A stretch of DNA of 64,000 nucleotides. Source: a virus (Duplodnaviria > Caudoviricetes). Where the stretch lies: the IMG/VR virus record IMGVR_UViG_3300047539_000052, positions 4,310-68,309 of that record; one strand, given 5' to 3'. How positions within the stretch are numbered: position 1 is the stretch's first letter; every line of letters starts with the position of its first letter. Position numbers and translations under genes: made by a program. The notes under the pieces were generated by a model that did not search any database, was not told where the DNA came from, and was given only the letters and a program-made list of their open reading frames with translations. Below, piece by piece: positions 1,026-55,785 of this stretch.

Positions 1026-2689
1026 AAAAACTGTCGGCGGTTCTCGCTCTCCTATTCGTGAGCGTCTGCGGCCATGCCCAAATCTCGGGCTCATCCAGCC
1101 GACCGCTGACGGTGCAGAATAATGGCACATCTGCGGGTACGGTGACCGGCCAGCGGGTGCTGAATTTTGTATCAGGCTGCACGGCGACATTGACCAGCGG
1201 AGTTTTCAATATTACCTGCAGCTCGGGCGGAGTGACGGTCAACGGGGGATCCAATATTGCCGTTCCAAACTTCCAGAATGGCACTGGCGGAAACATCATC
1301 AACTTCGTGGCCGCCGGTTCGAACATCCAGGCGAGCATTCCGACCGATACCGTTACCAATTCGATGCTGCAGAATAACGGCACAACGGTAGGCGGGGCAA
1401 ACTGCGTATTGGGAGCAAGCTGCACGCCAACCCTCGACGCCATCGGTTCGCCGCAGACCAACACTAACGTTTCTTTTACCGCATCAGCGGGGTACGGCTA
1501 TACCTTCCTGGGCACGGCTCCGGCTTCTACTTCTTCCGGGACGGGCACAGCACCTGGAACTTTATTCAACGCCATGGCGCCGACTGGAGGAGCAACAACG
1601 GGATCAGCCACAACGGCGGGAGCAGGCGGAAATATTTCCTACACGGCGGGCGCAGGCGGATCAGGATCGGGCGGCACAAACGCCAGCGGCGGAGCAGGCG
1701 GAAGTATCAATCTTATCCCCGGAGTAGGCGGAGCGAAGTCTGGCTCTGGAACGGCGGGCGTGAATGGGCAGGTAAATATCGGTCTGGCAGGCACGATCGG
1801 CGGCATCCTGGGCTTTGCCGGGCTGACCAGCGGCACCGCGACTTGCACGGCGCCGGCAGTGGCAGGAACGGCGACAAACGCTGTCGTGTGTAGCAACGGC
1901 TTCAATGTGCCGCAAAACAGCGGGACAGCGGTCAACGGCGGCTCAACTCCGTACTATGCCTTTACGGGAGATACAAAAACTGGCATGGGAGCAGTGGGCA
2001 CCTCAACGTCAGAGGCTGGCCTTTATTCGAACGGAAATCTGATTGCCTATTTCGGCGCCCTCGCCACTGGAATGACGCTCTACAGTACCAGTCCCATTCG
2101 CTGGTCCGATTTCTCCACGTTCAATGACACCTATCTCTGCCGCGCCAGTGCTAGCGTCTTCGAAGTGGGCACGACTTCCTGCAACGCCTTGGGCACGCTG
2201 AACACTGGAGTCATCAACACAGGGACTTCGGTAGCAGCCGGCGGCTTTACAGCGGTCAGCATTGGCACGCCGACGCAGATTTACAATACCGCGACGACTT
2301 CCTCCTCGGCCTCGATCTCGGCAACTACGATGATTGCCAATGGAGCGGCGGACCGGAATTATCGCTTCAATGCCTATGTCGGCCAACTGGCGGCGGGAGC
2401 CACCTGCTCCGTCGCAGGTTCCATAGCCATCAACATCGTTTACACCGATCCCATCACTGGAACCGCCTATACCTATGTCGTGCCCGTTCTCCTGAGCGGC
2501 GGTACCGCAATGGGCGCGAACGTTCCGCTCTCCACTTCTACGCCGACGGTTGCGAACGTAGGCAACGCGACGATCCAATTCCGCGCGAAGGCGTCCACCA
2601 ATGTGCAGTTCTCGACGACCTACGCGCAGGGTACGTGTAGCTCTGGATCACCCACTTACAGCATTTACCCGGATTTGGAGGCGCTTTGA
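1022..2689 (+). CDS. Gly/Thr-rich fibre/adhesin-like protein with signal peptide
   Basis: ATG 1022; MKKLSAVLALLFVSVCGHA-Q; glycine-rich GGAGG-type repeats. Confidence 0.65.
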   Translation: MKKLSAVLALLFVSVCGHAQISGSSSRPLTVQNNGTSAGTVTGQRVLNFVSGCTATLTSGVFNITCSSGGVTVNGGSNIAVPNFQNGTGGNIINFVAAGSNIQASIPTDTVTNSMLQNNGTTVGGANCVLGASCTPTLDAIGSPQTNTNVSFTASAGYGYTFLGTAPASTSSGTGTAPGTLFNAMAPTGGATTGSATTAGAGGNISYTAGAGGSGSGGTNASGGAGGSINLIPGVGGAKSGSGTAGVNGQVNIGLAGTIGGILGFAGLTSGTATCTAPAVAGTATNAVVCSNGFNVPQNSGTAVNGGSTPYYAFTGDTKTGMGAVGTSTSEAGLYSNGNLIAYFGALATGMTLYSTSPIRWSDFSTFNDTYLCRASASVFEVGTTSCNALGTLNTGVINTGTSVAAGGFTAVSIGTPTQIYNTATTSSSASISATTMIANGAADRNYRFNAYVGQLAAGATCSVAGSIAINIVYTDPITGTAYTYVVPVLLSGGTAMGANVPLSTSTPTVANVGNATIQFRAKASTNVQFSTTYAQGTCSSGSPTYSIYPDLEAL

Positions 2690-33931: not shown

Positions 33932-34744
33932 ATGAAGGCTCCCGTCGCGCTTACATCTGAAGAATTGCTGGCTGTGCTCGCCCTGGCGCGGGCGCGGCGG
34001 CTGCGGGACTGGGTAATTCTGCTTACGCTCTATTGGGGCGGTTACCGCGTGAGCGAGGTAGTGCGCAGCTCCACGCATCAAATGGGACTCTTTTTTACTC
34101 GCGAACGGGCGGAGCAGCGCCTGCGGGATAAAGGGGAAGGCGCCAGCATCCGGGAAGTGCAGCGCAAGGTACGCGGCCGGCTGCGAACCTGCTTCCTGGT
34201 TGAATCGGCCCAGTCGGTTATCCGGCCCGGGCTGCGCGAGGATGCGATCGAGGGGCAGGAAATCACGGTCCAGCGGCTGAAGGGATCCCTCGAGACCGTC
34301 CAGTTGCTCCAGGAGCACGAAAACCCGCTTTTGAACGAAAAAGCGGCCTGGGAAGAGTGGCTGGCGGATCGGCATCGCTACGGGAAAAAAGGCGGAGCTA
34401 AAACGGTGCAAAACAACGTTTTGGAGCCTAACGGCCGGAACGACCCGCTATTCAATATCTCGCGAAGCCAACTCTTCCGCCTCTACCGATCCTACGCGCG
34501 CGAGGCCGGCTTACCCCGCCGCAAGCTTCATCCGCATTGCCTGAAGCACACGCTCGGTACCGATCTGGTCGAATCTGGAATGTCGCTCCCAGAGGTGCAG
34601 GTTACGCTGGGGCACAAATCGCTGGCGTCTACGGGGCAGTACACGCTACCAAAAGAAGAGGCGGTTTCTCGAGCGGTGGGGCGGGCGATTCGCGGCAAGG
34701 AAGAATTCAAGCGAGCGAGGCAGGGCGATCTGTTTACTTCCTGA
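33932..34744 (+). CDS. tyrosine recombinase (short, FimB/XerD catalytic-domain type)
   Basis: RDWVIL..GYRVSEV, RLKGS, HPHCLKH, LGHKSLASTGQY. Confidence 0.85.
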   Translation: MKAPVALTSEELLAVLALARARRLRDWVILLTLYWGGYRVSEVVRSSTHQMGLFFTRERAEQRLRDKGEGASIREVQRKVRGRLRTCFLVESAQSVIRPGLREDAIEGQEITVQRLKGSLETVQLLQEHENPLLNEKAAWEEWLADRHRYGKKGGAKTVQNNVLEPNGRNDPLFNISRSQLFRLYRSYAREAGLPRRKLHPHCLKHTLGTDLVESGMSLPEVQVTLGHKSLASTGQYTLPKEEAVSRAVGRAIRGKEEFKRARQGDLFTS

Positions 34745-49701: not shown

Positions 49702-50204
49702 AAATCACTCATTTCGATTTTCGATCCCAGTACGGTGTTTTGCATTTGGCGCAACGAAGTGGTTTTTCTTCGGTCTTCCACTGATGGCCGCAGACCTCGC
49801 ATGTGCATTTAATGATCTCGACCTTGATGGTTTGAGTTGCCATATGCACCAAGGTGTACTCCTTTAAGCAGAATTCTGTCAATAGGGGAATGAAAATAGT
49901 TTTCGGAAATCGTGTGCGAAAGCGGGGCGGAATTGCGGCGGGAACGATAAACTATTCAAATCTGCACAAACTATGAGGCATTCCCATGGCTCGTCCGCCA
50001 ACCGATCCAAGATCCATCCAGCCCGTTAAGCCTGAGACTCCACAGGAAACCTGGGCGCGCGTCCTCACTGTGCCGGGATTCCGCCATTTGCAGACTGAGC
50101 GAAAGCAGCCGATCCGCGCGAAAGACTTCAGTGAAAGCACGTAGGATGGGTCTGCACGTAAATTCGGTACGTTTAGGAGGTCGGCGGAGAAATCTGCCAG
50201 AGCG

Positions 50205-50237
50205 AACAAAAGCCCCGGCTGGTGACACCGAGGCTTT
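50205..50237 (-). terminator. intrinsic terminator ending the leftward cassette transcript
   Basis: AAAGCC.CGG..CCG.GGCTTT hairpin followed by T-run on the minus strand, just after stop 50252. Confidence 0.55.
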
Positions 50238-50251
50238 CCTGACAGTCTTCT

Positions 50252-50566
50252 TTATCCCGGATTGATTGAAATGAGTGTAGCACGATCCGAATTTGGTTTC
50301 GCGGCGGCGAAATTGCTCCGGAGTGAAAACCGGGCGCACTCACTATTTTGCCGCTTCGCTCGGTCATCGCGCAGCCGCTCGTATCTGCACGTGGCAGCGA
50401 GGTAAAATCCGGGCAAGCCTTCAATATGCTTGGGCGGCCTTCCTCCTAATCTGCCATTCCTGGCACTAGCTTTAGCTTTGGCTTTACTGGTCACTCCAGC
50501 ATTTTTAGCTGCAATGCAGGAAGGACAAACTAATTGAGTGTGAGGATGAAGCTTGCAGTTTGGCAT
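50252..50566 (-). CDS. small basic protein
   Basis: SKAKAKASARNGRLGGRP motif; N-terminal Cys/His cluster. Confidence 0.6.
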   Translation of the reverse strand: MPNCKLHPHTQLVCPSCIAAKNAGVTSKAKAKASARNGRLGGRPPKHIEGLPGFYLAATCRYERLRDDRAKRQNSECARFSLRSNFAAAKPNSDRATLISINPG

Positions 50567-50701
50567 AAATGAATTCCCTTCTGAATATTGTGTGCTATGC
50601 TTTTTCGCGCGTCCGGCGTGATTTGCGACGTGTGCTCCTTTTCTGGGTTAGCTGCTTGAAAAAAGCTGTGCCAAAGCAAGATTTCACGCTTGGACGCTAA
50701 A

Positions 50702-50959
50702 TTAGCATTCCAGTTCTGCGGCTTCTTTCAACGTCAGCTCTTCCCCGCTGGAGTTTTCAAATCGGTATTCATCAGCCCTGTCGTGCCATGTGTACTTTGT
50801 TCGCTCCAGTCCGCAGACGGTGCAAGTGTCAGAGATCAGCACGTTGCCATTCCATCCGGGATTCCCCCTGATGTCATCGTTTCCCCATTCGTGATTGTTT
50901 TCAACTACTTCTAAGAGGGTTTCGGTGCGCGTCATCTTGTTGCTTTTCGGCGTTGCCAT
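50702..50959 (-). CDS. cassette gene, hypothetical protein
   Basis: RBS AAGGAG directly after hairpin E1. Confidence 0.65.
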   Translation of the reverse strand: MATPKSNKMTRTETLLEVVENNHEWGNDDIRGNPGWNGNVLISDTCTVCGLERTKYTWHDRADEYRFENSSGEELTLKEAAELEC

Positions 50960-50979
50960 AATGATTCTCCTTTTCGTTT

Positions 50980-51033
50980 TAGCTGCTCAGAACTGCGTCA
51001 AGTTCTAAAACCGGGCGCAGTCCTCAAAAGCTA
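50980..51033 (-). repeat. intergenic hairpin element E1
   Basis: TAGCT TTTGAGG ACTGCGCC-loop-GACGCAGT TCTGAGC AGCTA. Confidence 0.9.
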
Positions 51034-51327
51034 GTCGGTCACCATGTTGCAGCCATCCGGTCCTAGCTTGCTCAAAAGTTCCGACTCCTCGGCATCTATC
51101 GAATAGTAGATTTCCGTCCAGTCCTCCGCGTTTAATGATGCCTGCTCGCCGTCCACGATGGCCTGTTTGATCTCGCGCAAGTGATTGCGCCAGTCTTTCG
51201 ATTCGCGGTCACTGCCAGCGGTCACGGGTGATTTGATCTTGGCCTTGAGTGACGAAACGATCTGCGTCCACTCCAAATTCGTGATGACATCGCATGGCGT
51301 TGGGGCTACCTGCTGCTTGGGTTTCAT
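51031..51327 (-). CDS. cassette gene, hypothetical protein
   Basis: ATG 51327 after E2 and AAGGAG; TAG stop is the first triplet of E1. Confidence 0.65.
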   Translation of the reverse strand: MKPKQQVAPTPCDVITNLEWTQIVSSLKAKIKSPVTAGSDRESKDWRNHLREIKQAIVDGEQASLNAEDWTEIYYSIDAEESELLSKLGPDGCNMVTD

Positions 51328-51351
51328 GGGGCTGATTCTCCTTTTCAGTTT

Positions 51352-51406
51352 TAGCTGCTCAGAAGTGGGCCAAGTGGGAAAACCGGGCGCACTCCTCAAA
51401 AGCCTA
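51352..51406 (-). repeat. intergenic hairpin element E2
   Basis: TAGGCT TTTGAGG AGTGCGCC-loop-GGCCCACT TCTGAGC AGCTA. Confidence 0.9.
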
Positions 51407-51817
51407 ACGTTTCCCTTCCAATTCGCACGCTGTATCGTGTTCTTCGCCATACCATGAGCGATTCGCACAAGTGCAAAGGCTCTCATCCTGCTCATTCGTG
51501 ACCGGCCCCGGCCCTAAATTGATGCGCTCGCAAAGGTTGTTAATCTGCCTGTCGGTCAGCGGCTGCGTACCATCCTCGAAGTGCTCGAAGTCTTTTCGCT
51601 CGCCTTCTAGCGTTCTAGCTTGCCAATAGCGCAGCGCCGCCAAAATGGTTGCAACGTCTTCGTGGGACAGTTCGCCGTCAACGTATAGGCGCAAGTTGTC
51701 TGGGTTATGGCTGTTGCGCAGCGCTTGCGCGAGTGTCGGAGTCGTCGGTCTAAGCACTTCGGCTGCGGCTCCTGATATCTGATCCAGTGTCTGCTGTAAT
51801 CGTTTGCTTTTAGTCAT
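51404..51817 (-). CDS. cassette gene, hypothetical protein
   Basis: ATG 51817 after E3 and GAGGAG; TAG stop begins E2. Confidence 0.65.
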   Translation of the reverse strand: MTKSKRLQQTLDQISGAAAEVLRPTTPTLAQALRNSHNPDNLRLYVDGELSHEDVATILAALRYWQARTLEGERKDFEHFEDGTQPLTDRQINNLCERINLGPGPVTNEQDESLCTCANRSWYGEEHDTACELEGKR

Positions 51818-51838
51818 CTGAATTCTCCTCATTTGAAT

Positions 51839-51892
51839 TAGCTGCTCAGAAGTGGGCCAAGCGCGAATACCGGGCGCACTCCTCAATCGCTA
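51839..51892 (-). repeat. intergenic hairpin element E3
   Basis: TAGCG ATTGAGG AGTGCGCC-loop-GGCCCACT TCTGAGC AGCTA. Confidence 0.9.
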
Positions 51893-52573
51893 GGCTGCAA
51901 GTAGTTCTGTTTCCAAACGCTGCAAAGATTCCCGCACATTGTTATTCGAATCCTTTACGATGCGAGCGAAGTTTGGCGCGGCTGCATCTCCGGGCGCTTC
52001 AGACTTCCAAACGCGGGCTAACAGGTCGGCCGCTTGTGAACCTAATCCATACGTGCTGAATTCCAGCACCTTAGAGCGTGATAGAAAGCGATCCTCTAAG
52101 CCAGCCGTGGTATTGCAAGTAAAAATGAAGACCGTGGCCGGAGGCGGATTCGTGCCATCCAGTTTGCTCAATAGCGCGAGCTGTGCAGCGCTGCTCATCT
52201 TGTCCGCTTCGTCTACCAGAACAAGGTGCATCTTCAATCCGCTCATGGGCACGTAATGGCACGAGTAGCACGCACGATCCAGGTTTGCGATATTACACTC
52301 CTGCGATGGAATGTGATGCAGCTCTGCCGGAATTGCGGCGGCCAGGGCGAGCGCCATTGTAGTTTTGCCCGTACCGGCTGCGCCACAAAACAGGAATGAC
52401 GTGGGATAAGGACTGGCCGCGAACTTGGCCATGATCCTTTTCTGCTTTTCCAGGCCGGCGAAGTCTTCAAACTGGCGCGGCTGATACTTCATGGTTAAGG
52501 ACTGCGGGAAATCGAATCCAGTTTGCAGGATTGCCGCATCTGGCGCGGCCGGAGAACTTAATTGCAATTCCAT
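51890..52573 (-). CDS. AAA+ ATPase, clamp-loader (RFC/DnaX)-like
   Basis: KYQPRQFEDFAG, GAAGTGKT (Walker A), LVDEADKM (Walker B), FIFTCN, RFLSR. Confidence 0.85.
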   Translation of the reverse strand: MELQLSSPAAPDAAILQTGFDFPQSLTMKYQPRQFEDFAGLEKQKRIMAKFAASPYPTSFLFCGAAGTGKTTMALALAAAIPAELHHIPSQECNIANLDRACYSCHYVPMSGLKMHLVLVDEADKMSSAAQLALLSKLDGTNPPPATVFIFTCNTTAGLEDRFLSRSKVLEFSTYGLGSQAADLLARVWKSEAPGDAAAPNFARIVKDSNNNVRESLQRLETELLAA

Positions 52574-52611
52574 GATCGTGCTCCTGATTCAGAGTTAGCT
52601 GCTCTGGTAGT

Positions 52612-52640
52612 AAGCTAGTCCGAATAGGATAAACTGTCAA
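52612..52640 (-). promoter_or_regulatory. leftward sigma70-like promoter PL
   Basis: TTGACA-17 bp-TAGCTT; followed by AGCAGCTAA at 52595..52603. Confidence 0.75.
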
Positions 52641-52876
52641 GAGGAAAATCGAATTTATTTTTCGCGGCGGGAATCTTCAACAAGCCTGAAAACGGGGCGC
52701 ACTCAGAATTACTACCTGTTTCCTTTGCGATCTACTCGGACGGCGAGCGAGCGCCAGGTTTTGGAATCATGGCCAGCACACATATAAAGGATGAGCGCTC
52801 GAAACCTGCGAATTCCCTGCTAGGCAATTCCTACACAGCTCTAAACGAAATAAATAGGACACAATGCAATTAGCTA

Positions 52877-52906
52877 TTGACAGTTTATCCTATTGTACTG
52901 TAGGTT
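52877..52906 (+). promoter_or_regulatory. rightward sigma70-like promoter PR
   Basis: TTGACA-18 bp-TAGGTT; first 18 nt identical to PL; followed by AGCAGCTAA at 52914..52922. Confidence 0.75.
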
Positions 52907-52946
52907 AGTAAGTAGCAGCTAACCTTCGGACTCGGAGAATAAGACA

Positions 52947-54053
52947 ATGGCTCACAATATCTGGCAGCGTAATGGTGTAGCACATATGTTTTGCGTTGGA
53001 AACCGTGAAGCAGCCTGGCACAAACTAGGCCAGCGCACCGATGGCGCAGTGAACTGGATGGAAGCCATGACGTTAGCTGGTCTGGATTGGACCGTGGAAA
53101 AACAACAGCTCTATCTGCCGGTCGGATCAGACTTCGCTGCAATACCGGCATGGGGAATCGTGCGCAGCACAGACAAAGCATACTTGGGCACGGTGGGAGC
53201 ACAGTATCAGACAATCCAGAATGAATACGCTTTTGATTTCGTAGACGCGCTAATTGAGAGCGAGACGGGCGCACATTACGAGAGCGCTGGCGCTTTGGGC
53301 AATGGCGAGCGCATTTGGTGCTTGGCCAAAGTTCCTCAGACGATCATGGTAGCAGGCGAAGACAAGAGCGAAGTGTACTTGCTTTTCACGACTAGCCATG
53401 ATGGCAGCATGGCAGCTACAGCGAAGATGTCCACGGTTCGGGTAGTGTGCCAAAACACGCTAAATATGGCGCTTTCTGCTGGTGGCGCCATGGTGCGAGT
53501 GAAGCACACGCGCGATGCAGAGCGCCGTCTGGATCATGCGAAGCGCTTAATGCAAGGTGTCGGAGCGGATGCCAAAGCGCTCGAAGAGAAGCTAAACCTG
53601 TTAGCCGCGCGCAAGATGACGCGCGAAACAATGGCCAGCATCTTCGACCGTTTGTTCCCTAAGCCAAAGGATACCGAATCCAATACCACGCGCCGTGAAA
53701 ACGTGCTCGCCGATATTCTCCGCCTGTACGAATCGAATGATAAAAATGCTTTTCCCGTCATTCGTGGCAGCGCTTATAACCTTTTGAACGCTGTGACGGA
53801 GTACACCGACCATGAACGATCTGCTCGAATCACAGACGGCCGGAAGGACTATAGCGTAGAGAAAGCACGCGCGGAAAATGCACTTGTGGGAACCGGTGAC
53901 CGGCTGAAGAGTGAAGCGCTCGAAGTGATCCTGCAATCTACGGATGGCGCGCCATTGATGCCAGCACGCGCAATCTATTCGCGGCCGATCGTTCCACAGT
54001 CTGCGCCCGGATCTGGCAGTCTGCTGGATTCCGTTATTTCACAATATAACTAG
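52947..54053 (+). CDS. DUF932 / TIGR03299-family phage-plasmid protein
   Basis: REAAWHKLG, Y..IQN...F.F.D, ESAGALGNGERIW, LLFTTSHDGS, RVVCQNTL, NAVTEY.DH. Confidence 0.9.
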   Translation: MAHNIWQRNGVAHMFCVGNREAAWHKLGQRTDGAVNWMEAMTLAGLDWTVEKQQLYLPVGSDFAAIPAWGIVRSTDKAYLGTVGAQYQTIQNEYAFDFVDALIESETGAHYESAGALGNGERIWCLAKVPQTIMVAGEDKSEVYLLFTTSHDGSMAATAKMSTVRVVCQNTLNMALSAGGAMVRVKHTRDAERRLDHAKRLMQGVGADAKALEEKLNLLAARKMTRETMASIFDRLFPKPKDTESNTTRRENVLADILRLYESNDKNAFPVIRGSAYNLLNAVTEYTDHERSARITDGRKDYSVEKARAENALVGTGDRLKSEALEVILQSTDGAPLMPARAIYSRPIVPQSAPGSGSLLDSVISQYN

Positions 54054-54104
54054 CTTCTGAGGACCGCATCCGAGCTTACGCTTTGGTGCGGTTTTGAGCA
54101 GCTA
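54051..54104 (+). repeat. intergenic hairpin element E4
   Basis: TAGCT TCTGAGG ACCGCAT-loop-GTGCGGT TTTGAGC AGCTA. Confidence 0.9.
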
Positions 54105-54126
54105 ATCCAAATGAGGAGAAATTCAG

Positions 54127-54379
54127 ATGATTACCTATCATGTCGGCGAGTCTCGAAACGGAAGGATTAAATTCACTACGGATGTCGATTGTCTCAGTCC
54201 TGACATCATCCGCTATAGCACGCAAGTCTTCCCAGATCGTAACGCGGGTACTGGATCAAGCTGGAATCCTGGTCACGCGCGGATTCGACGTTTGCATTGA
54301 CGATGAAACGGGATGCGATGAGCTGCGCCCGTACCGTGTAGACGGAAGGATCACGGGCTATGTTTTCGCTGAAAACTAG
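54127..54379 (+). CDS. cassette gene, hypothetical, probably one frameshift near 54240
   Basis: ATG 54127 after GAGGAG; the frame ending at the TAG of E5 is offset by one base. Confidence 0.45.
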
Positions 54380-54432
54380 CTTCTGAGGATTGCGCCCGGA
54401 TTCTCTCATCTTGGCGCAATTTTGAGCAGCTA
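54377..54432 (+). repeat. intergenic hairpin element E5
   Basis: TAGCT TCTGAGG ATTGCGCC-loop-GGCGCAAT TTTGAGC AGCTA. Confidence 0.9.
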
Positions 54433-54452
54433 ACTCAAAACGGAGGCACATT

Positions 54453-54911
54453 ATGACTAGCGCGGACATGGTAACGGATTTCAAACTGAGAAGTGACTTT
54501 TACGAGACGCCCGTGGGCACGTTCGAGTATTATGCGCACGCGGAAGAGGCTTGCAAGCGCTGTGACTTTGCGCCCGAGCTGTGTATCACGCATCGCGTGG
54601 AAATGGCCACAATTCAATCGCTCCTCAAAGCAATCAACGCACATTGCGGGAAAATGGCAGAAGAGTATGACTTTTCTACCTACCGCGTTACGGGTTTCAT
54701 TCCTGAGAAGTATTGGAATCTTGTAGCCTTTGCCGTGGAAGGCGGAAGCGAAGGCTATTACATTCACGTTGGAGCGATCACGCGCCAGGAGCGCCAAGAC
54801 GATGCGCCAGCATACATAGACTTTGGCTGCGCCAAGACGTACAGCTCCGACAGCGCTTATGCAATGGCCAAAGAAGTATCTCGTTTCCTTTCGGCGGCTG
54901 CTTGGAATTAG
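54453..54911 (+). CDS. cassette gene, hypothetical protein
   Basis: RBS GGAGG after E5; ends TAGCT. Confidence 0.7.
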   Translation: MTSADMVTDFKLRSDFYETPVGTFEYYAHAEEACKRCDFAPELCITHRVEMATIQSLLKAINAHCGKMAEEYDFSTYRVTGFIPEKYWNLVAFAVEGGSEGYYIHVGAITRQERQDDAPAYIDFGCAKTYSSDSAYAMAKEVSRFLSAAAWN

Positions 54912-55785
54912 CTTGTTTAGGTTCCCTATCGCGCCAGCGCTTCCCCAAACGCTGGCGCATTTTCTTGCGTGCTAGAATCTTCGGCATGGAAGATAGCTTC
55001 CCGCATCCTATCGCGCCCCGGAATCGTAATTCCCTCACGATGACGCGGCGAGCTGTGCCGATCTCCCACCAGCGCGCCAAAGATGCTGCGATGCGTTTGA
55101 TTCATTCTCACTTCGGACAACCAGACCATGCGCGAATCTCGATTCCGCTCAACCTGGACGATGATGACGTGGTAATCATGGATTACATAGAGCAACAGCT
55201 CATTCGAGAGCTAGACCTGGACAGCGCTCGCCCCAAACTGGCCAGCGATTACATCCCGCCCAAGCGCTCGAGCTGATCTTGGCCAGCGCTTCCCTTTCTG
55301 CCAGCGATTCGCAAGCCATTGGCGCACGATCCGCGCAAGCTCTCAAGGCGAAGGATCAGCGAAGTTTATTCTGTACACATTTGTAAAGACTCCAAGTGGT
55401 ACGCTAACTCGGATGGTACGAAACCCTCCAAATATAGGGCCATGTGACATGCCTTAATGCTGTATTATCAGCGGGATAGGGGTATGGGGTCACATCTCTC
55501 GGGCCAAGGGCGCTGCGACCGGCTTGCAGTTTCGCACGAAAACCCGCACCGAATGAAAAACGCCGAAATGAGGTTTTTGCATGGAATGGCAAGATGAAGC
55601 GATCGCTCATCTCGAAGCCGTCCGCCGGCTGATCGAAGCGCAGAAAGAATCGTATACGTTTGCCGGCTGCGCCATTCAGGAAGTGGAAGCGCTGAAGGTT
55701 TACGTCCTCGAAGTGTTTCCAAGGTCGGGTTCTATCTCCTCAGATTGCTAGGAGTTACGGAGTTACCTCGGTAACAGGAGAATTT

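Follow-up and report, generated by a model that had tools for sequence, protein, structure and literature searches.

In the early mRNA of bacteriophage T7, RNase III cuts at five signals (R0.3, R0.5, R1, R1.1 and R1.3), so that a stabilising hairpin remains at the 3' end and a new 5' leader is formed; the ideal substrate of the E. coli enzyme is 22 bp long, and mismatches lead to single-strand cuts that leave stabilising 3' hairpins (PMC3867540). In T4-type phages, elements known as PeSLs combine a strong sigma-70 promoter with a transcription-terminating stem-loop (Arbiol et al. 2010, PMC2839356; Comeau et al. 2014, PMC4122927). PeSLs flank ORFans in a variable region, where homologous recombination between them inserts, deletes or replaces single genes, and the crossovers have been mapped in or near the stem-loop (PMC2839356). 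The SAS/ESAS elements of cluster K mycobacteriophages are conserved motifs lying just upstream of start codons in one orientation; in about half of the cases an imperfect inverted repeat, of 17 bp and with a spacer that varies, comes before the motif, and the elements are suspected to be connected with translation start (Pope et al. 2011, PMC3203893). Here we describe a hairpin element that lies between the genes of a divergent unit in the IMG/VR virus record IMGVR_UViG_3300047539_000052; the stretch analysed, hereafter the window, is 64 kb out of the 68.3-kb record. We hold with moderate confidence that this hairpin is a promoter-less intercistronic element that acts at the RNA level and doubles as a recombination patch.

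Terminase, portal and tyrosine integrase genes are among those of the window, which belongs to a tailed phage from peat soil. The phage is probably temperate, as judged from the tyrosine integrase, and its host phylum is probably Acidobacteria, an assignment that AAA+ homologs in Acidobacteriota prophages support only indirectly. The divergent unit occupies 50195-54985 and has a U-tract terminator at either end; twin promoters drive its two arms, so that each arm has a single upstream promoter, and terminators occur at the unit ends only. The minus arm runs from an AAA+ clamp-loader-like ATPase gene through a hairpin, a 137-aa gene, a hairpin, a 99-aa gene, a hairpin, an 85-aa gene and a decayed element to a small Cys-rich gene and the terminator, and the plus arm from a DUF932/TIGR03299 gene through a hairpin, a small gene, a hairpin and a 152-aa gene to a decayed left arm with a terminator. 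A preliminary description made from the sequence had claimed five stop-codon-anchored hairpins here, adjoining DUF932 and AAA+ ATPase genes. Both genes are present (matches to PF06067 and PF00004), and the five hairpins lie at the places it gave, with scores of 73-86 bits under R1, a covariance model that we built on eight copies:

50976 to 51037, minus strand: hairpin element (R1 86.1 bits; fold -24.1 kcal/mol)
51348 to 51409, minus strand: hairpin element (R1 76.1 bits; the TAG is displaced by one inserted G, TTAGGC)
51835 to 51896, minus strand: hairpin element (R1 73 bits)
54047 to 54108, plus strand: hairpin element (R1 77.1 bits; fold -31.1 kcal/mol, z -5.5)
54373 to 54436, plus strand: hairpin element (R1 75.1 bits; fold -29.1 kcal/mol, z -5.7)

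As RNA, the five have fold energies of -23 to -31 kcal/mol. A search of the window with the filters off found no comparable R1 match outside them: the best matches elsewhere in the 64 kb were their own antisense strands (at most 23 bits) and three leader-only remnants.

A search of related phages with such a model had been suggested in the preliminary description, and with R1 it yielded a family of 87 sense-strand copies (70 distinct) spread over 31 contigs of phage or metagenome origin. These contigs comprise 29 metagenome loci recovered by a pattern scan (peat, permafrost and forest soil) and two IMG/VR contigs. In scans of viral contigs, a first pattern returned one true relative (L014) together with ten chance matches, and a second returned L017. 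A blastn comparison of 50200-55100 with the phage collection gave no similar DNA, a strict pattern scan of 185,579 species genomes gave no match, and Rfam at its gathering threshold gave 0 matches across the whole window. The literature on Acidobacteria phages was searched for the element and none was found.

The element is tied to codons on both sides. In order, it consists of a TAG stop codon, the 5' arm, an apical loop of 3-10 nt, a 3' arm ending GAGCAGCUAA, a leader of 10-20 nt, a Shine-Dalgarno sequence (SD) and an ATG. The TAG is the stop of the upstream open reading frame (ORF) in all five window elements, shifted by the inserted G in one, and an SD and ATG follow each at 15-25 nt, both as previously described for this locus. 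Across the family the element starts with TAG in 83 of the 87 copies, most of these have their TAG frame open for at least 45 codons or as far as the end of the contig, and the SD and start codon lie 15-35 nt 3' of the helix. Elsewhere in the window TAG accounts for 9 of 31 stops, the three stop codons being used about equally outside the unit. When copies from different contigs are compared, similarity sets in no more than 4 nt from the TAG and tails off at the SD/ATG, so the conserved unit is exactly the intergenic region. All 87 copies are oriented along their flanking ORFs.

The structure of the element, which is about 60 bases long, is maintained across the family. The helix is fixed at about 22 positions per arm; no arm indels occur in the 70 distinct copies, and length variation is confined to the apical 3-10 nt. 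The inner stem had been reported to vary in sequence while keeping its pairing, and the family alignment bears this out: 91% of cells are paired, and compensatory change is seen in 11 of 20 pairs over the 70 distinct copies. Double-change cells number 117, compared with 36 +/- 5 in shuffles and at most 18 in controls with slid partners. The helix also contains three near-fixed 1x1 mismatches, namely U.C (50/70), the central G.G noted earlier in the window copies (65/70) and C.U (68/70), as well as a near-fixed G.U pair (64 of 70 copies). G.U cells outnumber A.C cells (174 vs 71), and the sense RNA is 2.5 kcal/mol more stable than the antisense (50/70, p=0.001), whereas DNA parameters give no difference. 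This strand asymmetry speaks, with moderate force, for selection acting on the transcript. The 3' arm TGAGCAGCTAA is nearly invariant, even opposite broken basal pairs, which indicates that it is conserved for its sequence and not for pairing alone.

The sequence of the 3' arm recurs at the promoters of the unit, which were read from the sequence as follows:

52595 to 52640, minus strand: minus-arm promoter and leader; TTGACA (52640-52635), 17 nt, TAGCTT (52617-52612), 7 nt, GAGCAGCTAA (52604-52595)
52877 to 52922, plus strand: plus-arm promoter and leader; TTGACA (52877-52882), 18 nt, TAGGTT (52901-52906), 7 nt, AGCAGCTAA (52914-52922); R1 12.9 bits on the leader

The layout of the minus-arm promoter recurs before the gene for the AAA+ ATPase (family F0) in L024, L038, L046, L049, L051 and L014. 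In eight promoter regions (both window arms and these six contigs), (G)AGCAGCTAA lies 6-8 nt past the -10 hexamer without a left arm and is followed by GGAGCA and an ATG. The end of the hairpin 3' arm, GAGCAGCUAA, thus coincides with the predicted +1 of the operon's own promoters. Because the 3' arm equals the head of the primary transcripts, a cut within it would hand downstream cistrons the same 5' leader. Owing to its strict limits on hexamers and loops, our consensus scan called neither the promoters nor the terminators of the unit; these were read by eye, and the unit-end terminators were assessed by folding.

The promoters of the AAA+ operon also carry an inverted repeat over the spacer and -10 hexamer (AACCTAC...GTAGGTT; ATAACCTA...TAGGTTAT), seen at about 4155-4185 in L049, 400-430 in L038 and 1040-1075 in L051, and at 52877-52906 in the window. 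It looks like an operator for a dimeric repressor. The two divergent promoters of the window have an identical 18-mer, TTGACAGTTTATCCTATT, in common. Immediately upstream of the AAA+ operon in two relatives lies a gene for a Crp/Fnr-type regulator (cNMP-binding domain and HTH_Crp_2; 3-701 in L051 and 10837-11736 in L024), whose product is a candidate regulator of the operon promoter.

The genes between the hairpins differ among relatives while the hairpins persist, as the preliminary description had proposed to examine. The 101 ORFs that adjoin hairpins fall into 48 families, arranged in many orders across the 31 contigs. The F0 gene leads nine arrays, and a gene for a small Cys-rich protein (family F4) ends those arrays whose distal end was recovered; the orders between them include F0-F16(DUF932)-F9-F10-F5-F38-F8-F4, F0-F2-F7-F15, F0-F9-F5, F0-F1-F3-F29 and F1-F3-F2-F11. 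L014, whose flanks are 97% identical to the window, nevertheless has three different genes between the same junctions, and the DUF932 arm (52698-55252) is absent as a whole from L014 and from one contig of the peat run X1. Joints at hairpin borders were also seen in peat metagenomes (50656->50964; 51035->51894, in a single contig at depth 2; and 52698->55252). One exchange could be followed to the base of a hairpin. L035 is identical to the window across the 137-aa gene and on into the base of hairpin 51348-51409, as far as GAGGA in the 5' arm, and beyond it is L014-like in the upper stem, loop, 3' arm and next gene, which places the crossover of this chimera inside the hairpin. Taken together, these comparisons of sequence point to the exchange of single genes at the hairpins among relatives, and ordinary homologous recombination over the conserved junction of ~85 nt would be enough to explain the shuffling without dedicated machinery.

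In four near-identical contigs with F1-F3-F2-F11 arrays (L028, L033, L036 and L039), the two hairpins flanking cassette F2 have loop types and individual variant bases exchanged between them. Neighbouring copies may undergo gene conversion here, but 1-2 informative sites are too few for a call.

How might such a junction work? We suggest that a host double-strand-specific RNase would cut one strand of the mismatched, roughly two-turn hairpin in the polycistronic mRNA, much as RNase III acts on the T7 early signals. The hairpin would then stay as the protective 3' end of the upstream message, and the downstream message would begin with the same (G)AGCAGCUAA leader as primary transcripts have at +1. 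In this way the same stop, 3' cap, leader and SD would go to each cassette regardless of what it encodes or where it lies. As a variant of this scheme, the leader may act in translation, as a standby or enhancer site that the 5' arm masks until a ribosome arrives at the TAG. At the DNA level, the ~85-nt junction would serve as a portable homology patch, through which phage or host homologous recombination could swap, insert or delete whole ORFs with their expression kept, the AAA+ ATPase gene being fixed at the head of the exchanged stretch and the gene for the small Cys-rich protein at its end. With 22 positions per arm and three fixed mismatches, the helix between the cistrons agrees with the ~20-22-bp mismatched helix of T7-type signals. 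That the cleavage is specifically of the RNase III type is a tentative proposal, made by analogy, to which we give less credence than to the general role.

Of the two readings offered in the preliminary description, a system for cassette capture and shuffling stood as regards shuffling and fell as regards dedicated capture machinery (no attC cores, no integrase beside the arrays), and what stood of a dedicated mRNA-processing code is the RNA structure, on the evidence of covariation, co-orientation and the moderate excess of G.U over A.C. Several observations weigh against our combined reading of the hairpin as an RNA-level element and a patch for recombination. With 71 A.C cells, the bias between the strands is moderate and not absolute. 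The basal pairs 9/63 and 12/60 are broken in 14/70 and 17/70 copies, respectively, with the 3' arm still invariant, and conservation of its sequence is compatible too with a motif bound by a protein or the ribosome, or with a site in the DNA. The substrate rules for RNase III are those of E. coli and may not hold in Acidobacteria. Two metatranscriptome runs consist of short assembled contigs (50089-50626, 55059-55233 and 51055-51305), which are unable to show ends or transcription. Only one crossover was mapped within a hairpin, and internal ends of high-scoring segment pairs fall at hairpins in 11 of 52 cases, which is about chance level, so there is no general enrichment. Finally, six prophages with AAA+ homologs in Acidobacteriota metagenome-assembled genomes (MAGs) gave no R1 match, and none of the five searched for comparable repeats had any; the operon evidently works without hairpins in these relatives.

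In one of these MAG prophages, from Candidatus Sulfotelmatobacter (L054 5739-6520), the gene next after AAA+ is a homolog of the Cys-rich one (MEKQYCKIHP...), and the small hairpins that separate the two are unrelated. This arrangement looks like a cassette-free form of the operon, and the AAA+ and Cys-rich genes look like an older platform that was later filled with cassettes by the hairpin-bearing lineage.

Three described types of element were tried and rejected. An intrinsic terminator was rejected for want of a U-tract behind the helix: as the preliminary description had maintained, no copy has one, the tails reading AGCUAA(A/C)(A/U)C..., and no terminator-like call was made among the copies. 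The hairpins are therefore not terminators, while canonical terminators close the unit. A PeSL was rejected because the 15-35 nt from hairpin to ATG leave no room for a promoter and none was called; a promoter-like site was called in no element, the spacing from TTGGCG to TAA... being 14 nt. An integron attC site was rejected in the absence of core boxes and a neighbouring integrase, there being also little sign of linkage to the upstream gene. The lack of attC cores had likewise been stated before, and it extends to the family: RYYYAAC occurs in 0/70 distinct copies, a chance GTTRRRY in 10, and both in none. The only integrase of the window is a generic 270-aa PF00589 tyrosine integrase (33932-34744), 16 kb from the array, and the arrays of the window, L051 and L024 have no integrase next to them; in the latter two, the neighbouring ORFs scanned encode a Crp-like regulator, a HerA-like ATPase and TerL. 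Pairs of hairpins with the same upstream and different downstream gene families gave an identity of 0.80 for the left arm against a background of 0.77, and 0.28 against 0.31 for the loop, although the gene families are old and linkage of site to upstream gene could therefore have decayed.

The main rival to an RNA-level element with a recombination role is a purely translational device, which we consider unlikely. Every cistron would need the GAGCAGCUAA leader as a standby or enhancer site for ribosomes; the 5' arm would sequester it, and translation termination at the TAG would melt the lower stem, expose the leader and so couple each cassette to the preceding one, the RNA remaining uncut. 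Such a device would suit the stop codon in the first helix pair (83/87 copies), the same motif at the start of the hairpin-less leaders of first genes, the invariance of the 3' arm where basal pairs are broken, and an SD that is always within 10-20 nt. However, at least five copies keep the hairpin intact with an upstream ORF that ends earlier or a mutated TAG (GAG in L014 1869-1930), a stable helix of ~60 nt between stop and start would be unusual for termination-reinitiation, and simple sequestration needs neither a fixed helix length nor fixed mismatches. Roles as a DNA operator or in dedicated recombination are less likely than this. Stoperator-type sites lie between genes in mycobacteriophage L5, and a phage regulator that bound the asymmetric AGCAGCTAA at promoter +1 and at the junctions could similarly silence the operon in the lysogen. 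The motif is indeed at the promoters and at every junction in one orientation, the 3' arm of the hairpin is conserved beyond the needs of pairing, and the phage has an integrase and is probably temperate. We nevertheless regard this as highly improbable: it leaves the compensatory changes, the fixed helix length and the anchoring to stop codons unexplained, the promoters already have a different operator-like palindrome over the -10 (AACCTA...TAGGTT), and no candidate binding protein co-occurs specifically with the hairpins.

Still less probable, in our judgement, is a dedicated integron-like system, in which a recombinase would act on the folded single-stranded DNA hairpin to excise and insert ORF circles between the fixed first and last genes. 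The array of single-gene cassettes, the imperfect palindrome with fixed unpaired bases behind each ORF, the conserved platform and the hairpin-to-hairpin joint 51035->51894 are all reminiscent of one. Besides the missing core boxes, the lack of a recombinase beside the three arrays inspected and the near-absence of linkage between hairpin variants and the upstream gene, the mapped crossover lies within shared sequence, as in homologous exchange, and the window's two arms diverge, each from one of the twin promoters. The least probable account is a selfish miniature palindromic element (REP/MITE-like) that has spread through intergenic gaps and has no role for the phage. The hairpin is a short imperfect palindrome with many copies and near-identical ends, but no copy is found in the other 59 kb of the window, copies keep a single orientation relative to genes and are bordered by stop and start codons, the element supplies the SD leader, no transposase is associated, and compensatory change maintains pairing. 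A more speculative combination, which we think very unlikely, is that Acidobacteria phages possess a dedicated cassette platform that works without an integrase and is made up of the hairpin junctions together with the fixed AAA+ and Cys-rich genes at its two ends, with RNA cleavage giving captured ORFs the primary leader and with the folded junction, not mere homology, as the capture site.

The genes of the unit are as follows:

51890 to 52573, minus strand: AAA+ ATPase, clamp-loader-like, family F0, first in the array (PF00004, DNA_pol3_delta2; PHROG clamp loader, 83 bits)
51404 to 51817, minus strand: cassette gene, 137 aa, ORFan
51031 to 51330, minus strand: cassette gene, 99 aa, ORFan
50702 to 50959, minus strand: cassette gene, 85 aa, ORFan
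50252 to 50566, minus strand: small Cys-rich protein with a basic GRLGGRP tail, family F4, last gene
52947 to 54053, plus strand: DUF932 / TIGR03299 phage-plasmid protein, first in the plus arm (PF06067 E=2.8e-58; TIGR03299 243 bits)
54127 to 54379, plus strand: small cassette gene with a frame discrepancy
54453 to 54911, plus strand: cassette gene, 152 aa, ORFan, last in the plus arm

The cassettes are mostly ORFans, the exceptions being the DUF932 protein, an LPD29-domain protein and a weak ligase-like protein. The F0 protein is RFC/DnaX-like, under the NCBIfam cut-offs. DUF932, which heads the plus arm of the window, is an ordinary in-array cassette in L051 and L024. The 137-aa gene also exists in a form with a 219-nt in-frame deletion, seen in contigs of two peat runs (joint 51469->51689) and, encoding 64 aa, in L035. 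The 85-aa gene is skipped or replaced in contigs of the peat runs X1 and X3 (joint 50656->50964), and its counterpart in L014 is a 77-aa gene. The Cys-rich protein has no Pfam or NCBIfam match, and its homologs terminate the arrays in L030, L032, L042, L050, L051 and L014. Compared with contigs of three other runs, its gene has a cluster of small indels at 50350-50415; since the protein has 104 aa in the window and 63-93 aa in relatives, the 3' end of the gene may be mis-assembled or truly variable. At 54127-54379, the ATG with a good SD (54127) opens 57 codons up to a TGA at 54300, and the frame of the hairpin TAG (54377-54379) starts at 54140. X1 and X3 contigs show one gap somewhere within the pieces spanning this gene (54092-54958 and 53841-54962), which makes an assembly indel or a real frameshift possible.

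The remaining features are decayed or partial elements and the two terminators:

50645 to 50700, minus strand: degenerate element; right arm AGCAGCTAA, leader and orphan AGGAG without a start codon behind it (R1 16.4 bits)
50285 to 50345, minus strand: half copy; TAG, left-arm core GAGTGCGCCCGGTTTTCA and a small GC hairpin, without the GAGCAGCTAA arm
52650 to 52725, minus strand: second half copy; TAG and left-arm core GAGTGCGCCCCGTTTTCA, upstream of the minus-arm promoter, with no stable fold
50195 to 50250, minus strand: intrinsic terminator ending the minus arm; GCCUCGG...CCGGGGC then UUUUGUU (fold -23.4 kcal/mol)
54909 to 54985, plus strand: decayed left arm TAGCTTGTTTAGG containing the stop codon, then the canonical terminator GCGCCAGCG...CGCUGGCGC AUUUUCUU

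The degenerate element had been listed as a variant hairpin at about 50649-50699; its right arm, leader and orphan SD are there, and a full element is not. It coincides with a homology breakpoint relative to L014 and with the joint at 50656 in the peat contigs. Near 50325 and 52695, where half copies had been reported, the left-arm core GAGTGCGCCC(G/C)GTTTTCA is indeed held in common, but the two belong to a different small element. In place of the DUF932 arm, L014 has another decayed hairpin (2389-2520, minus strand) with the right arm CCGAGCAGCTAAAAC, then an SD and a mini-ORF of ~10 codons, just upstream of the minus-arm promoter.

These findings add a well-supported and uncatalogued RNA/DNA motif, represented by 87 copies that show covariation and matched by no Rfam family; the host phylum of the phages that carry it has barely been studied. 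One junction would do two jobs, providing each accessory gene with standard expression signals (stop codon, hairpin, leader and SD) and providing the homology for whole-gene exchange. Two phenomena previously described in separate systems, early-mRNA punctuation of the T7 type and ORFan shuffling of the PeSL type, would thereby be joined, and the junction offers a testable account of how phages keep newly gained ORFans expressed. In addition, the model R1 can serve as a marker for accessory, possibly anti-defence, gene arrays in soil viromes.

How, then, does the element compare with the known systems? Like integron attC sites, it is an imperfect palindrome behind each promoter-less single-gene cassette with unpaired bases at fixed places; unlike them, it comes without R/L core boxes, IntI or attI, it shows almost no linkage to the upstream gene, and its copies are highly identical. 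With PeSLs it shares the shuffling of ORFans by recombination between copies, one crossover being placed here in the 5' arm (L035), whereas the present elements have neither promoter nor terminator tail and the array is read from one upstream promoter. The RNase III signals of T7 are likewise imperfect hairpins of about two turns with internal mismatches, placed between cistrons and lacking a terminator tail. There is no sequence relation to them, however, and in the present family the stop codon lies within the helix base, the 3' arm equals the 5' end of the primary transcript, and the copies are far more alike and mark the points of cassette exchange; cleavage is here only predicted, and the host is probably an acidobacterium. 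The SAS/ESAS elements are alike in architecture, a likeness of layout to a family defined within mycobacteriophages, and they differ in host phylum and probably in sequence. ESAS copies occur dispersed through the genome and go with particular gene families, whereas the hairpins described here fill all the junctions of one operon, take in the stop codon of the upstream gene, and are documented by covariation and by cassette exchange.

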